A program made the position numbers and the translations under genes. This document shows, one piece after another, positions 32,942 through 38,493 of a stretch of DNA of 64,000 bases (its first letter is position 1; each line of letters opens with the position of its first letter). Source of the stretch: a virus; IMG/VR virus record IMGVR_UViG_3300000651_000003, positions 33,309 through 97,308 of that record; one strand, given 5' to 3'. The notes beneath the pieces are model-generated. The model ran no database searches, had not been told where the DNA came from, and was given only the letters and a program-made list of their open reading frames with translations.

Positions 32942-33347
32942 TGTTTCCGTCCCTTTCTGCTCTCGCATGCTCGACAATACCGAGCACTTGAGTCAACACT
33001 TCTATTGGCAAAAACTCCCATCGCACCTGCTTAACCTGACCGAGGGCAGCGTTGAACCTTTTTACCTTCTCCAGCCGGGACTTGGTCTCCTCGACAAAAG
33101 TGTTGACCGAGATGTGAGTGCCATAACCACAGCGGCCTACTTGGTCGCCGCTGTCTTTGTAGAACTTCATGCCATTGATGACCAGCTGGGTCGGAGTTAC
33201 TCGCTGGACATGATGTGGCGTTTCGTGGTCATAGCTTATTCCGTAGCGAGTCAGAAAAACTTCGTCGCCTGCTTTGAGCTCATGCATGTTCATGCGATTG
33301 GCTTTTTGCCGTTCGATAAAGGTCATTCCTTGAGTTGACGTAATCAT
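32928..33347 (-). CDS. hypothetical protein
   Basis: ORF track; in operon. Confidence 0.5.
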   Translation of the reverse strand: MITSTQGMTFIERQKANRMNMHELKAGDEVFLTRYGISYDHETPHHVQRVTPTQLVINGMKFYKDSGDQVGRCGYGTHISVNTFVEETKSRLEKVKRFNAALGQVKQVRWEFLPIEVLTQVLGIVEHARAERDGNNGNN

Positions 33348-33465: not shown

Positions 33466-34029
33466 TCATGCAGCCCTCCGAATTTCCCGACCGTCGGTCG
33501 TCTCGCAAACCGGATTCAACACCGGGCCGAAAGACTTGACGCATACTGGCCCGATGCCCTGCTCGACTGACTTGGCCGCTTTAAGGTGGCGGTTGCAGTT
33601 GATGCAGCGGCCGTAGAGCGTAATCAATTCCTTGGCTCGTTCGAGGCTCATGCGATCGCTGAGTTTGATGTCGAAGATGCCGCCCGTCTTGGTTGCCCAG
33701 TCACCCTTCTCATACTGGAATTCGAAGTCAACTCGGGAGCCGGCTTCGGTCGTGCGATAGTCGCCATTGAGCTGGACAAAGCGCTTGGCATAAAGCCGGC
33801 TCTTGTCTTCGCGGGTGGCCTTGACCACGTAAATGCGACCGTCAGCCAATTCATAAACGCCCGGCACGAGTGGCTCGGGTTTCCATGCTGGCTCTGCGGT
33901 TGCGATTGGCTCTGGGCAGGTGACGTGAATTGCTTTGGTCTCAGGTGACCAGTCAATCTCGGTACCGGCCGGAAAGGACTGATTGCACTTGCGGCAGTAG
34001 CCCGGGAATTTGCTCGTCATTCGCTTCAT
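33466..34029 (-). CDS. DUF6011-like zinc-binding protein
   Basis: GRCINCNRHL...SVEQGIGPVC motif; GGAGG RBS before ATG 34029. Confidence 0.7.
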   Translation of the reverse strand: MKRMTSKFPGYCRKCNQSFPAGTEIDWSPETKAIHVTCPEPIATAEPAWKPEPLVPGVYELADGRIYVVKATREDKSRLYAKRFVQLNGDYRTTEAGSRVDFEFQYEKGDWATKTGGIFDIKLSDRMSLERAKELITLYGRCINCNRHLKAAKSVEQGIGPVCVKSFGPVLNPVCETTDGREIRRAA

Positions 34030-34074
34030 AACTTTTTGGCCTCCGTAATTTTTGTAGGTGCTCATTACAAAGGA

Positions 34075-34103
34075 ATTATGGGCTTCAAACAGGCAAAATT
34101 CAA
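34075..34103 (-). promoter_or_regulatory. sigma70-like promoter TTGAAT-17-CATAAT
   Basis: Intergenic, upstream of 34029. Confidence 0.55.
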
Positions 34104-34231
34104 CTACAAAAAGCACTCTTGACCTAATTTTCTTCTCCTTTATTTTCAACGATTTAACCCTAGTGAGTAGGGCCGTCTCTATTAAAACGGCCCTATTTGC
34201 CACAAAATCGCCCGCTGGCTGGTCTTCCGGG

Positions 34232-35407
34232 CTAGTCAAGGCTAAGCGCTTCGGTAGGCTCGTCCTCGTCTCCCTTAAAGAATTTACGCTGAGAAACTAC
34301 GATCAATTTGCCCGCATCTTTCTTGATCGTATTGACTGCATCGAAAATGGTCTCGCGCAGAGTAGTGTCTTTGCGAACCTCTGCCGGGTCAACATTCTGC
34401 AAAATGTCTTTTGCTTTCAGACAAAACTTCTTAAGGTCGTTGTCCCCAGTCAGATCGCCGCCAGTCAAAAACATGTTGATGAATTCGACGTACTTCGTTA
34501 TCGACCCACCCATGAACCTCTTTGGCTTGCCCTTCTCGTCCGTGCCAAGCTGAGACAGCAAGTGGTCGTTCAACTCCTGAAATGCTATACGGGCTGCATC
34601 GCGAGCTTCCTGAGCAGCATTCGCGAAAAAGACACCGGCTTTCTCGGACTCCTCCTTGTATATCTCGCTGTCTAGGTCAGACAGCGCAGCTGCAACGTTG
34701 TAGTTGATCCATCGATACTCAACATCGTACTTGAGCCGGATGGTTGCGAACGGTGGGTAGTCAGCAGAGGTGAAAAACGGTCCGCGCTTAGTCTTTGCAT
34801 CCTTGACTACTGCATCCCACTTTTTGCCAAACAGAGTAATCAATTTCTCTCGGTCCTCGATGTACTGTTTGGCTGCATCGGTAATCATTTTCACCTCGGT
34901 GCGTCTCATCAAATACGCACCTTGGAATTTGAGTGGCGACGGAACAACATGGGCCTTGACATAGTTCGTAAATTGCTTGTCTCGTTTCGCAATTGCTTTG
35001 ATGAACTTGCGATCAATCAAGTCCTGCGAGACATGCACCATTGAAGGGTCAGGCTTATGGCCGTTCGAATCCTCCTCGAGGCCCGGCATCGCTCCAACCA
35101 CCTTCTTCGGAAACTCCTGCACGCCGATTTGGGTTTGGGCGTCGGATATCAGTTTCTTCATCTCTGGAGTCAGGCTCGCAATCTCGTCCTCGGACAATTT
35201 GCTGACCACTCGCATAAAGTGTGCTGAGTCAATCGACTTTTTGAAGCCCGGGGTGCCGATATGCAGCTCGAAGGTAGTGGTAAGGTCAACCAGCTTCTTA
35301 CCTGCTTCGGCTTTGTCGAAGCTGGGATCCTCCAAAGCCAGTGCTTCTATTTCTTCCTCCAACACTTCATCAAGCGTAGGTTTTGTTTTCACAGGTTTTT
35401 TGCTCAC
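34232..35407 (-). CDS. DUF3150-like protein associated with AAA+ cluster
   Basis: Helical; F...DYP...IR.KY pattern; last gene of Ycf46-like operon; ends TEALSLD. Confidence 0.55.
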   Translation of the reverse strand: MSKKPVKTKPTLDEVLEEEIEALALEDPSFDKAEAGKKLVDLTTTFELHIGTPGFKKSIDSAHFMRVVSKLSEDEIASLTPEMKKLISDAQTQIGVQEFPKKVVGAMPGLEEDSNGHKPDPSMVHVSQDLIDRKFIKAIAKRDKQFTNYVKAHVVPSPLKFQGAYLMRRTEVKMITDAAKQYIEDREKLITLFGKKWDAVVKDAKTKRGPFFTSADYPPFATIRLKYDVEYRWINYNVAAALSDLDSEIYKEESEKAGVFFANAAQEARDAARIAFQELNDHLLSQLGTDEKGKPKRFMGGSITKYVEFINMFLTGGDLTGDNDLKKFCLKAKDILQNVDPAEVRKDTTLRETIFDAVNTIKKDAGKLIVVSQRKFFKGDEDEPTEALSLD

Positions 35408-35655
35408 AGTACATTCTCCTTTATGAATTTGGTCTCGGCATCTAGTGCCTGTTGTCTAAAATCGAACGGGCCAAGCATTGGACCAGCCACTGGCGACATA
35501 TCCGCATACCACTTGTTGTCTGGCCCCGGTTCGACGTGGCTCGCACGTTTGGTCTCGGCATGACCGAGCTCCATCAAAAACGCTAGGTCGTCGTGGTAGA
35601 TGAATGACAGTACGCCATTCTCATCTGCGCTGATTAGAAACTCTTGTAGTGGCAC
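35404..35655 (-). CDS. small conserved protein of AAA+/DUF1257/DUF2997 cluster
   Basis: RASHVEP...WYADMSPV.GP.LGPF..R..AL.AE. Confidence 0.65.
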   Translation of the reverse strand: MPLQEFLISADENGVLSFIYHDDLAFLMELGHAETKRASHVEPGPDNKWYADMSPVAGPMLGPFDFRQQALDAETKFIKENVL

Positions 35656-35830
35656 GATTGAGTACCTCCCTCTCGTTGTATTCCGGAGTGGTCTCGGTCG
35701 ATGTGACCTTGCCGAGTTTTTGTTCTAAATCCGCAGTCAGGGCGCGACATGCTTTGCCTTTGACACCCTTGACCGAAATGACAGGATTGTCATTGTCATC
35801 GAAGTCCATTAGAATTTCCTGCAGTGCCAT
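35621..35830 (-). CDS. DUF2997 family protein
   Basis: V.GVKGKAC..LT..LE..LG.V.....T.EY. Confidence 0.75.
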   Translation of the reverse strand: MALQEILMDFDDNDNPVISVKGVKGKACRALTADLEQKLGKVTSTETTPEYNEREVLNRATTRVSNQRR

Positions 35831-36291
35831 TAGACGTTCCTCCATGCCCGCATCTGAGGTTTATTTGTTACCGGGTTAATCCTTCTTTCGGTTCTAAAGC
35901 CCTTCCGAGCTGCATCCCGCATACCTACCGCAAGGGCGTATTCTCTCCTGAGTAAGCCGGCGTCCTTGCCAATGGCGGCCTGTAATCCTTGACCGCCAGC
36001 CCAGAAGTCGTAGATCAGTACGTAGCCCGGGCCATTCGGGTTCTTGACCAGACCAACTTCATATGCGTCTGGGTTGCCTTTGACTCGGATTGCATGTTCG
36101 CACTTGCCATAATCCTTCGGGTCGATGCCATGTTTGTATGCGGCATCGTCGCCGTGATAATCATTGACCCACGACCCGAACCACTTGTAGGTCTTCTGCC
36201 CTCGGGCCAACTCGAGGCCGAGAGGCTTGCATGCTTGTTCGGCAGCATCTAAGTCCTCGAAAATTGTCTCTACCGCTGTGACGTGACTCAT
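35830..36291 (-). CDS. DUF1257 (Ycf35-like) protein
   Basis: MSHVTAVET...YEVGLV...Y.L.YD.W...L.REYA. Confidence 0.75.
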   Translation of the reverse strand: MSHVTAVETIFEDLDAAEQACKPLGLELARGQKTYKWFGSWVNDYHGDDAAYKHGIDPKDYGKCEHAIRVKGNPDAYEVGLVKNPNGPGYVLIYDFWAGGQGLQAAIGKDAGLLRREYALAVGMRDAARKGFRTERRINPVTNKPQMRAWRNV

Positions 36292-37817
36292 TGATCCTCC
36301 TTCATAATCTTGCGGCCAGTTGAAATGTTCGTACCCTTGGTAGGTCGAGCGTAGGGACCCGGGAAGCTGGCTGAGTTGTACTTACCAGCAGCTTCACCGC
36401 GAAGTCTATCCAGCCCCTCGCGATCGCTAACGGCCACCGGGATAATGTTGCGAGCTGCTTCGATTAACGTGACACTCTCTTCCCAAGCAGTCTGGAAGCA
36501 TGACTCGATTTCTGCTCCCGTCCAGTCGGTGCTGTCTACTTGGCCCCAGTCATGTAGGTCAACGTCTGGGTACTTCTTGGAGTAAATGTCAACGATGACT
36601 CGCTTCTCGTCTTCGTCAGGAATATCGAAATACCAGATGCCCTTTTTCATCCGGCGTTTCAGCTCGGGCTTGACTACGCGAATGTCGTTCGACGTGCAAA
36701 TGAAAAACGCGCCGGCTGGCCCGGCAATCGCCTTAATGACTTTGAAGATGTCGCGAATCTCGTTCTCGGCCTGACCATACAGCCCCTCGCCTACGGCCCC
36801 ACCAAGGTCAACTTTGAGAGTGATGCAGCCGCATTCGTTGGCTACGGCCTTGGCCGCTACGGACTTCGCGGCCCCCGGGGGTCCGACTAGTAGCATGCCT
36901 GTATACTCGTTGTCCTGCATCTCGCAGAGAATAACGCCAAGGCGGTCGCTGTCAGAAGCATTCGGGCCACCGACTCCTGCCATCGCCTTTTCAATCTCAT
37001 CAATCCAGACAATGAGTTTTGGTTTGCGCTTGCCGGCAATGATGCGATTCCAGCGGCGCTTGAATTCTTCGATACCGCCGATGCCTGAAAACTTCTGACC
37101 GCCTACCCAGACTGACAATCCCTTGGTCTGGGAAATCATTTGCTTCTTGAGATACCACATCTCGTCAATCTCAAGGACATCTTTCGGCATACACATAGCG
37201 GAAGTCTGTTCTGCTTCAAAACCTACCAAACCGCGCAGAGCACTGACTCCGCTCTCGAGGTCTACCTTGTTGAGTTTGACATCTGCGGCCTTGGCTACGT
37301 CGGTAATGATCTGGGCCAGTTGCTTCTCGTCTGGCAATGGTTCGTCAAGCAAAAGAATGTCGTGGGACAGTTCTGGCGGGAATTCGAAGTTGGGGCCGAG
37401 TAAGACCAACGTGCGGCCGCTGTCGCGATATGGAGTTCTCAGATTCCATACAGCTTGAATAAACGCAGCCCGGTCGCCGTACTCCCTTTGGAAGAACGCA
37501 TGAGCGTTGAGCATAAAGAGAATCGGGTTGACAGGTTTGTTGGTGTCTGCGTTGTATGGGAATTGATTGGCAACAACCAGAGAGTCTACTGGGTTGACTA
37601 CGTTGCTCGCCTCGGCTTTGTCAATAACGAGCTGCCCTGCGTCCGACCGGGGACGCATTCCCCTCACGACGTCCCACTGAATAATAGGAACGTCGGTGCC
37701 GTTTGAATTGACCATGGAACAGATGGTCTGCATGGTTAGTTCAGGGTCTAGTGTCTTAATCGCAATCAATGGCGTGCCGACCCTGCGAGCCGCCTTGAAG
37801 TGTTCTAGTAAATTCAT
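36288..37817 (-). CDS. Ycf46-like AAA+ ATPase with Walker B segment before Walker A
   Basis: WIDEIEK precedes GPPGAAKS; CTSN sensor 1; TGAEIE lid. Confidence 0.85.
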   Translation of the reverse strand: MNLLEHFKAARRVGTPLIAIKTLDPELTMQTICSMVNSNGTDVPIIQWDVVRGMRPRSDAGQLVIDKAEASNVVNPVDSLVVANQFPYNADTNKPVNPILFMLNAHAFFQREYGDRAAFIQAVWNLRTPYRDSGRTLVLLGPNFEFPPELSHDILLLDEPLPDEKQLAQIITDVAKAADVKLNKVDLESGVSALRGLVGFEAEQTSAMCMPKDVLEIDEMWYLKKQMISQTKGLSVWVGGQKFSGIGGIEEFKRRWNRIIAGKRKPKLIVWIDEIEKAMAGVGGPNASDSDRLGVILCEMQDNEYTGMLLVGPPGAAKSVAAKAVANECGCITLKVDLGGAVGEGLYGQAENEIRDIFKVIKAIAGPAGAFFICTSNDIRVVKPELKRRMKKGIWYFDIPDEDEKRVIVDIYSKKYPDVDLHDWGQVDSTDWTGAEIESCFQTAWEESVTLIEAARNIIPVAVSDREGLDRLRGEAAGKYNSASFPGPYARPTKGTNISTGRKIMKEDQ

Positions 37818-37845
37818 TTCTCTCCTTTCTTTGAACTGTAAACAT

Positions 37846-38493
37846 TTAGTCACAATCGCAAGACATTGACTCAAAATCGCTGACGATAGTCTCAACCAAA
37901 TCACTGTTGTCGGCCTCTTCAGCTTCGAACTCATGCTCGAACTCCTCGTGGCCCTTGGTGTGGCGATCATCGCCCTTTGCCATTGAGCACTTGCTACCGC
38001 TACCGTCGACTACGCCGCATTCGGCATCTTCATCCTCTGCGCCATCAGGCCAGTCAGCGTTGTCGATTGCCGAGTCAAGTTCGTCAATGAATGAGTCGAG
38101 CGCTTCAACCCGACCTTGCACTAACTCCCCATTCTGCCCGTTCTGAAATGACTCTGGCATGTTGTTGTAATTCTCGTCGAACTCATCCTTGAGAGACTCC
38201 GCATCATCTTTTAAAGACTCAAGGTTGGATTTAAAATCCTCGAACTCCATGTCTCTGCGAAAATCGTCGCAGTAGTCACCCAGTCTCTCGTTGAGTTCGT
38301 AAACTCGACCAATCTGGCCCTGAGTCAGTTCGCTGGCCCGGGGTGAGCAACCCGGAGCCATGCAGCGAAACTGTTTTGCCGAGTTGCGGAATTGCCACGA
38401 CTTATATTGACTGCCGGGCTGAATCTGAATCCCACAATGCCCACATTTGTACTCACCTCGAGTACTCTTAGTCTTGATAACTATTCTAGCCAT
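37846..38493 (-). CDS. acidic coiled-coil protein with N-terminal zinc finger
   Basis: CGHC; NMPESFQ motif; AAGGAGG RBS. Confidence 0.6.
   Translation of the reverse strand: MARIVIKTKSTRGEYKCGHCGIQIQPGSQYKSWQFRNSAKQFRCMAPGCSPRASELTQGQIGRVYELNERLGDYCDDFRRDMEFEDFKSNLESLKDDAESLKDEFDENYNNMPESFQNGQNGELVQGRVEALDSFIDELDSAIDNADWPDGAEDEDAECGVVDGSGSKCSMAKGDDRHTKGHEEFEHEFEAEEADNSDLVETIVSDFESMSCDCD

Follow-up and report, generated by a model that had tools for sequence, protein, structure and literature searches.

AAA+ and related P-loop ATPases are taken to have one fixed chain order, in which Walker A is followed by Walker B and then by sensor 1. The present analysis concerns a stretch of 64,000 nucleotides (the window; positions 33,309 to 97,308 of IMG/VR virus record IMGVR_UViG_3300000651_000003, a 97-kb record that is approximately 87% complete) and, within it, a 509-residue AAA ATPase, referred to below as the ATPase, in which the Walker B segment precedes the Walker A segment (swapped order). 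The closest described systems are Ycf46-like ATPases of normal order. They are represented by the profile phrog_8638, by the protein WDT73634.1 (P0270) encoded on the Candidatus Manganitrophus plasmid CP114554, and by 22 IMG/VR loci (L145-L167); the database label on these relatives is 'SpoVK/Ycf46/Vps4 family'. The ATPase resembles them in length, in having a degenerate N-domain followed by a classic-clade AAA domain with a lid, in the aliphatic pore loop 1 and the aspartate at the end of strand 2, and in its downstream DUF1257, DUF2997 and DUF3150 genes and mobile-element setting. However, the Walker B block comes first in the ATPase whereas the Walker A block comes first in the relatives, the identity is about 25%, the arginines are adjacent ([RK]RRF) where those of the relatives are mostly spaced (RxxR[FW]D), and one long branch lies between the two groups.

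The best structural matches were p97/Cdc48 D1-D2, Rix7/NVL, Vps4, spastin and fidgetin-like 1, with Z scores of 16-18.5. The ATPase shares with these AAA unfoldases a tandem D1-D2 layout and the second region of homology, including the adjacent Arg-Arg of Vps4 and spastin. Unlike these proteins, all of which have the normal order, it has a swapped chain, an identity to them of 16-25% and an N-domain without any nucleotide-binding motif. Cyanobacterial and plastid Ycf46, which goes with Ycf35 (DUF1257) and DUF2997, was placed in the same lineage by annotation label only; these are cellular or plastid genes of normal order. In cyanobacteria, DUF1257 (ycf35) lies next to DUF2997 (PMC4284462).

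Full-text and model searches found no published description or curated model of a swapped-order AAA protein. The literature on DUF1257, DUF2997, DUF3150 and Ycf46, the last judged by title and abstract, contained nothing on a swap, and DUF1257 and DUF2997 appeared there only in gene-cluster mentions. In two papers of the Aravind group the word 'permuted' refers to methylases. A 2021 review of AAA+ structural variation covers insertions without mention of permutation (PMC7973254).

Chain order in the catalytic domain

The ATPase gene was taken as 36288-37817 because the homologues align from residue 1, which corresponds to an internal Met at 37817, an AAGGAG sequence lies 6-7 nucleotides ahead of this ATG, and the upstream gene ends at 37846. 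The open frame extends over 36288-37970 on the minus strand; the longer form overlaps the upstream gene and was not used. The features of the gene and its product, several of them taken from an AlphaFold2 (AF2) model, are as follows.

36288-37817, minus strand: gene of the 509-residue AAA ATPase (P0001), stop codon included, from the translation
37128-37817, minus strand: N-terminal domain (residues 1-230), an alpha/beta unit with a helical lid that lacks Walker motifs and is probably a degenerate AAA-like (D1-like) domain, from structural alignment, phrog_8638 and P0270
37023-37127, minus strand: linker and helix 0 (residues 231-265, IGGIEEFK; AF2 helix 250-261), leading into the Walker B strand and not into strand 1
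36906-37022, minus strand: relocated block B (residues 266-304) with the Walker B strand, the pore-loop-2 region and helix 3, from phrog_8638 365-405 and P0270 304-319
36987-37016, minus strand: Walker B LIVWIDEIEK (residues 268-277) with D273 and the predicted catalytic E274, from conservation and AAA_2 72-91
36717-36905, minus strand: block A (residues 305-367) with strand 1, P-loop, helix 1, strand 2, pore loop 1 and helix 2, from PF00004 1-57, phrog_8638 307-364 and P0270 244-301
36861-36884, minus strand: Walker A GPPGAAKS (residues 312-319), with Ala and not Gly before the Lys, from conservation
36687-36710, minus strand: sensor-1 strand AFFICTSN (residues 370-377), from conservation of N377 and covariation with the Walker B strand
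36651-36656, minus strand: R388 and R389, predicted arginine fingers (second region of homology), from conservation and the motif [RK]RRF
36348-36620, minus strand: helical lid subdomain (residues 400-490, WTGAEIE), from AF2 helices 402-476 and a VIA alignment to p97 D2 and Vps4 that reaches about residue 489

In the translation of 36288-37817, the elements IGGIEEFK (helix 0) and KLIVWIDEIEK (residues 267-277, window 36987-37016) come first. They are followed by GMLLVGPPGAAKS (residues 307-319; Walker A at 36861-36884) and KVDLGG (strand 2), and then by FFICTSN (sensor 1, residues 371-377), LKRRM (residues 386-390) and WTGAEIE (lid). Walker B (residues 268-277) lies 41 residues ahead of Walker A (residues 312-319). 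An earlier note on this DNA had read the motifs in this order, and the swapped Walker order in the ATPase is confirmed. According to the same note, a second canonical Walker B after Walker A would refute a swap. Between Walker A and sensor 1 there is no second hhhhDE motif. A single acid is conserved in that interval, D337, which closes strand 2 and is shared by the normal-order relatives.

In profile searches, no Pfam, NCBIfam or PHROG model covered the ATPase collinearly. Pfam AAA (PF00004) matched only at profile positions 1-57 of 131 (residues 308-365), and Walker B positions 72-91 of AAA_2 matched residues 263-282, upstream of the PF00004 match. Profile models and annotation pipelines assume a fixed order, and Pfam sees less than half of the swapped domain. 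The normal-order phage profile phrog_8638 matched the ATPase in four non-collinear pieces.

Piece 1, residues 1-254: profile positions 14-284
Piece 2, residues 267-304: profile positions 365-405
Piece 3, residues 307-365: profile positions 307-364
Piece 4, residues 368-497: profile positions 406-552

Because the profile maps in the order 14-284, 365-405, 307-364, 406-552, two adjacent blocks, block B (residues 266-304) and block A (residues 305-367), are by this mapping exchanged with clean borders and with nothing lost. Block B maps to residues 304-319 of the normal-order P0270 and block A to residues 244-301. When the blocks of the ATPase were un-swapped in silico, the Smith-Waterman score against P0270 rose from 331 for the native sequence to 437. 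Furthermore, segment profiles made from the swapped family classified 462 proteins in total; 320 swapped proteins read N, B, A, C, and 142 normal-order proteins read N, A, B, C with abutting borders.

The pieces of phrog_8638 and the mapping to P0270 bear out the description of the rearrangement as an internal segment swap in which the flanks are kept and no new chain termini arise. The added statement that it is not a circular permutation holds for the whole domain, in which helix 0, strands 4 and 5 and the lid stay put and the old termini are not joined to give new domain termini. It is refined for the inner part, where the exchange amounts to a circular permutation of the strand 1-helix 3 unit alone. 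In the circularly permuted GTPases YlqF, YjeQ/RsgA and YawG the motif order is changed while fold and activity are kept. Those proteins have a true circular permutation of a TRAFAC domain with new termini, whereas the exchange described here affects an inner unit of an ASCE/AAA+ domain whose termini are kept.

The window stems from a metagenomic virus record, and this lends some weight to the view that the order reflects a local misassembly or a chimeric contig and that the true gene has the normal order. However, the reading frame is uninterrupted, and short loops are where the junctions are placed. The first homologue search returned full-length relatives with 38-56% identity to the ATPase, and a pattern test placed hDE[IV]E 38-46 residues ahead of GxxGxxK[ST] in 108 of the 121 proteins. 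All aligned family members (345/345) were collinear with the ATPase and had the swapped order. A search of representatives gave 931 clusters (50% identity) at E<=1e-30, the best 150 of which were near-full-length and mostly single-stretch matches. One cluster representative, P0002, is 99% identical to the ATPase and may derive from the same assembly. The earlier note had proposed that homologues with the same order would exclude a misassembly, and they exist: the 320 swapped proteins come from independent assemblies, are 30-56% identical, and include members from a cultured phage genome and a complete chromosome. Because the order recurs across these sets of homologues, chance and misassembly are excluded at the family level. 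Misassembly is already refuted there, and the probability left to it is practically negligible.

The cultured phage is the Tunturiibacter phage Tunturi_3, whose gp103 was the one swapped relative found in the phage collection; the plasmid collection contains normal-order relatives only (3 records). The complete chromosome of Nitrospira moscoviensis carries two copies of the swapped ATPase. The swapped form was also found in many metagenome-assembled genomes of Acidobacteriota, Nitrospirota, Planctomycetota and Armatimonadota, several of which have three or four copies. Among 80 IMG/VR loci, 56 were swapped, 22 had the normal order and 2 were unclassifiable.

Predicted fold and active site of the rearranged protein

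The AF2 model of the ATPase, made from an alignment of 46 sequences, had a predicted local distance difference test score (pLDDT) of 91.8 and a predicted template modelling score (pTM) of 0.88. Its elements run from helix 0 to the strand at 268-272 and two helices (275-283 and 287-302) in block B, then to the strand at 306-311, a helix, the strand at 332-336, a helix, the strand at 370-376, a helix, the strand at 394-396 and the lid. When the catalytic domain (residues 235-489) was superposed on p97 D2 (6g2x), 197 of its roughly 255 residues aligned, with a VIA Z of 17.0 and a root-mean-square deviation of 2.2 A; Vps4, spastin and fidgetin-like 1 scored only slightly lower. The alignment of the full model with D1-D2 of p97, Cdc48, Rix7 and NVL (VIA Z up to 18.5, 404 residues aligned) makes it probable that the N-terminal approximately 230 residues are a degenerate AAA-like domain. 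Residues 6-254 of this N-domain matched phrog_8638 at 24-284 (whole-protein E-value 1.4e-37), and the domain matched residues 5-230 of P0270 with a Smith-Waterman score of 230. The ATPase would have two domains, a degenerate, D1-like one at the N-terminus and, after it, a catalytic AAA domain of the classic clade. The layout is D1-D2 as in p97 or Rix7, with a dead D1, and the normal-order relatives share the N-domain.

Covariation was analyzed by mean-field direct coupling analysis (DCA) of the family alignment (Meff 251), and the top 100 of 36,856 pairs were considered. Four pairs (272-372, 270-372, 270-370 and 267-369) join the Walker B strand (strand 3) to the sensor-1 strand (strand 4) in parallel register (p 2.7e-5). 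Single pairs were found between strands 3 and 2 (269-331) and between strands 1 and 5 (310-397), each with p about 0.1. Helix 0 is coupled to helix 1 through F252-A321, W256-V325 and I260-C329, and helix 3 also covaries with helix 2; both pairings are those that a normal AAA core would show. No pair of strand 3 with strand 1 or strand 5 was present in the top 100. The model and the couplings support a sheet order of 5-1-4-3-2 with rewired loops, which is solid only for the pairing of strands 3 and 4. The earlier note had looked to structure prediction for a preserved sheet with rewired connectivity; the model is confident and the DCA bears out the pairing of strands 3 and 4, while the full order 5-1-4-3-2 is what we infer from them.

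Another reading takes the upstream DEIEK strand for a part of the N-terminal D1-like domain, or of an inter-domain site, and not for a moved piece of the core. The presence of two AAA-like domains with the motif near their border is in keeping with it. However, the block is homologous to the catalytic-domain Walker B block of the normal-order relatives and to nothing in their N-domain. Moreover, the N-domain ends in a lid of its own, helix 0 precedes the strand, and the elements with which the strand covaries, namely strands 4 and 2 and helix 2, lie in the catalytic domain. An N-domain strand is very improbable.

An exchange of blocks within the catalytic domain could be accommodated, judging from known AAA topology, with the three-dimensional core unchanged. 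The sheet would keep the order 5-1-4-3-2 with helices 2 and 3 on the same face, and only three short loops would be re-routed. Helix 0 would enter strand 3 instead of strand 1; helix 3 would still cross leftward on the same face, entering strand 1 instead of the neighbouring strand 4; and helix 2 would enter strand 4 instead of the neighbouring strand 3. These shifts would amount to one or two strand spacings, and the loops would sit along the N-terminal edge, across the sheet from the nucleotide. Both blocks appear to be whole strand-helix units, with all three new joints placed in short loops just before a strand, and the AF2 linkers at the re-routed edge are only 3-6 residues long. K318/S319, D273/E274 and N377 are predicted to form the ATP site as usual, and R388/R389 would reach it from the adjacent subunit in a presumed ring. 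Because every catalytic residue has been retained in this large and old family in spite of the block exchange, the data suggest that the AAA core tolerates the rewiring of three loops.

Conservation was counted in the alignment of 345 family sequences, whose overall identity is about 40%. E274, K318, N377, R389, G312 and G315 are invariant (345/345), position 319 is Ser or Thr in all sequences, and D273 and R388 are present in 339 (98%) and 330 (96%), respectively. Position 317, just before the Walker A Lys, is Ala in 195 sequences (57%), Gly in 115 (33%) and Ser in 19. The hallmarks of AAA+ proteins, namely Walker A, Walker B, a polar residue at sensor 1 and one or more arginine fingers, are present; the chain order A, B, sensor 1 is absent. 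Pore loop 1 reads GLYG in the ATPase and aliphatic LVG in the family. The arginine motif of the family, PEL[RK]RRF, has adjacent arginines, a form that we take to be that of Vps4 and spastin-type AAA proteins, while most normal-order relatives have RxxR[FW]D. The reading LKRRM in place of LR.GRFD was correct as a sequence, but the concern that it raised about the arginine finger does not stand in view of the conservation of R389 and R388.

It is conceivable that the ATPase is a pseudo-ATPase or scaffold, in which the DE pair has been moved out of reach of the nucleotide by the swap and the motifs are kept for structure only. The Ala before the Walker A Lys in 57% of the members and the lack of the usual aromatic residue in pore loop 1 are compatible with a loss of activity; however, the normal-order P0270 is aliphatic at the pore loop too. 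Furthermore, judging from the covariation, the Walker B and sensor-1 strands run next to each other in parallel register, which is also their arrangement in active AAA domains. Catalysis is favoured because invariance of the Walker B Glu, the Walker A Lys, the sensor-1 Asn and one arginine finger at this level of identity is hard to explain otherwise. A scaffold is therefore regarded as improbable.

Additionally, four long homologues (810-896 residues) carry inteins. In P0199, P0237 and P0267 the intein lies in the P-loop (C...HN between GPPG and SGKS or CAKS), and in P0138 it lies at sensor 1 (C...HN between AT and CN). Inteins typically lodge in indispensable motifs. The swapped ATPase is predicted from its conserved residues to be catalytically competent, and it would be expected to hydrolyze ATP.

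Probable origin and possible consequences of the exchange

Two trees were calculated from un-swapped sequences, one with 40 swapped and 40 normal-order proteins and one with 41 swapped and 42 normal-order proteins that included viral members of normal order. In both trees a single branch parts the swapped from the normal-order proteins, with a Shimodaira-Hasegawa-like approximate likelihood ratio test (SH-aLRT) value of 100. The stem measures 0.67 substitutions per site, and the median depth of the swapped clade is 0.91. Because a single branch divides the two orders in both trees, the rearrangement most likely arose once, long ago; the trees are consistent with this history and do not prove it. 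A plausible route would be that the inner A-B unit was first duplicated in tandem and that the outermost A and B blocks were then lost.

The findings are best explained jointly, and with high probability, by a two-domain Ycf46-like AAA ATPase in which the blocks of the catalytic domain were exchanged, the core was left unchanged and the exchange had one old origin. On phages, plasmids and conjugative elements, its lineage would be accompanied by DUF1257, DUF2997 and DUF3150 genes. Several points weigh against this explanation. No DCA pair between strands 1 and 4 was present in the top 100, and the pairings of strand 3 with strand 2 and of strand 1 with strand 5 have one pair each (p about 0.1). 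The evidence for the sheet order consists of the covariation, the confidence of the model and a sequential structural alignment in which about 58 residues of the domain have no aligned partner. The trees are unrooted, came from a quick search and sampled only part of the normal-order family, for which there are at least 8000 candidates. No protein with two Walker A or two Walker B blocks, the expected duplication intermediate, was found among the 462 proteins classified. Finally, the model of the DUF3150-like partner protein had no PDB match at E<=0.001 and gave only helical-bundle noise.

A further proposal is that the swap is not neutral and that the family is a mechanistically distinct AAA motor, in which the swap and the change from spaced to adjacent arginine fingers became fixed jointly. 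Pore loop 2 and helix 3 would run directly into strand 1 and the P-loop, helix 2, which lies behind pore loop 1, would run directly into the sensor-1 strand, and the coupling of the nucleotide state to the substrate-gripping loops could change. This proposal is tentative and rather unlikely. If true, the family would be at least the first natural non-circular permutation of the ASCE P-loop core, and it would allow the importance of folding order and loop connectivity for AAA+ mechanochemistry to be tested in a natural protein. The swapped family is a natural permutant in which allosteric coupling and folding pathways may be tested.

Neighbouring genes and genome setting

In the virus record the neighbours of the ATPase are phage replication genes, encoding DnaB, a YqaJ-like exonuclease, a beta clamp and a family A polymerase. 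The genes immediately around it are as follows.

35830-36291, minus strand: DUF1257-like gene, 153 residues, from an iterated profile; its Pfam DUF1257 match (E 0.021) is weak and below the cut-off
35621-35845, minus strand: DUF2997 gene, 74 residues, Pfam PF11211, E 2e-12
35404-35655, minus strand: small open frame of 83 residues between the DUF2997 and DUF3150-like genes, from the list of open reading frames
34232-35407, minus strand: DUF3150-like gene, 391 residues, assigned from the PF11348 matches of its relatives
33466-34239, minus strand: 257-residue protein with a C-terminal DUF6011 motif (E 3.6e-11; phrog_636), directly downstream of the module
37846-38493, minus strand: upstream protein of 215 residues matching phrog_4068 (unknown function)

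All four open frames downstream of the ATPase, from the DUF1257-like to the DUF3150-like gene, lie on its strand and partly overlap. The ATPase stop and the DUF1257-like start overlap as ATGA (36288-36291), and the DUF1257-like and DUF2997 genes overlap at 35830-35845. Because of these overlaps, translational coupling along the module is suggested.

Iterated profiles were applied to the surroundings of the ATPase at 81 loci and found DUF1257 relatives at 57, DUF2997 relatives at 59 and DUF3150 relatives at 70, on the ATPase strand and in an order that varies among the loci. The DUF3150-like gene is the most constant neighbour of the ATPase. Relatives of the three genes adjoin both swapped and normal-order ATPases, and the trio is annotated beside P0270. 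The assignment of the DUF1257-like gene is helped by its homologue at locus L011, which matches DUF1257 with E 1.1e-6. The 391-residue DUF3150-like protein of the window matches nothing alone in PHROGs or Pfam; the link to PF11348 comes from its relatives, 9 of which, out of 17 aligned, match that family (best E 1.5e-9), and its model (pLDDT 76, pTM 0.56) has long helices and a small sheet. The 83-residue frame likewise had no match in PHROGs or Pfam, and relatives of it were found at only 9 of the 81 loci. The DUF6011-motif protein was not found beside the module in bacterial loci.

Nitrospira moscoviensis is a cultured nitrite oxidiser, and at least one of its two copies (L040, at CP011801 2950506-2963954, and L047) lies in a region resembling a conjugative element. 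In this region the module stands amid genes for a TraG/TraD coupling protein, a ribonucleotide reductase, a primase and an SNF2 helicase. Because of this setting, with TraG/TraD, primase and SNF2 helicase, the module is considered to belong to mobile elements. With the swap, a four-gene module that is widespread on phages, plasmids and conjugative elements has gained a recognisable signature.

The PADLOC defence models gave no full-length match for any protein of the module. The four partner proteins matched nothing, and the ATPase had only a partial, P-loop-level match to IetA (E 8e-6, residues 306-360). The ATPase may form rings and serve as an ATP-driven remodelling motor, with its module partners as substrates or co-workers, while a mobile element is being established or replicated.

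The 215-residue protein encoded upstream (37846-38493) is not conserved beside the ATPase at other loci; it has a Cys-rich N-terminus (CGHCG ... C..PGC) and a very acidic C-terminal half.

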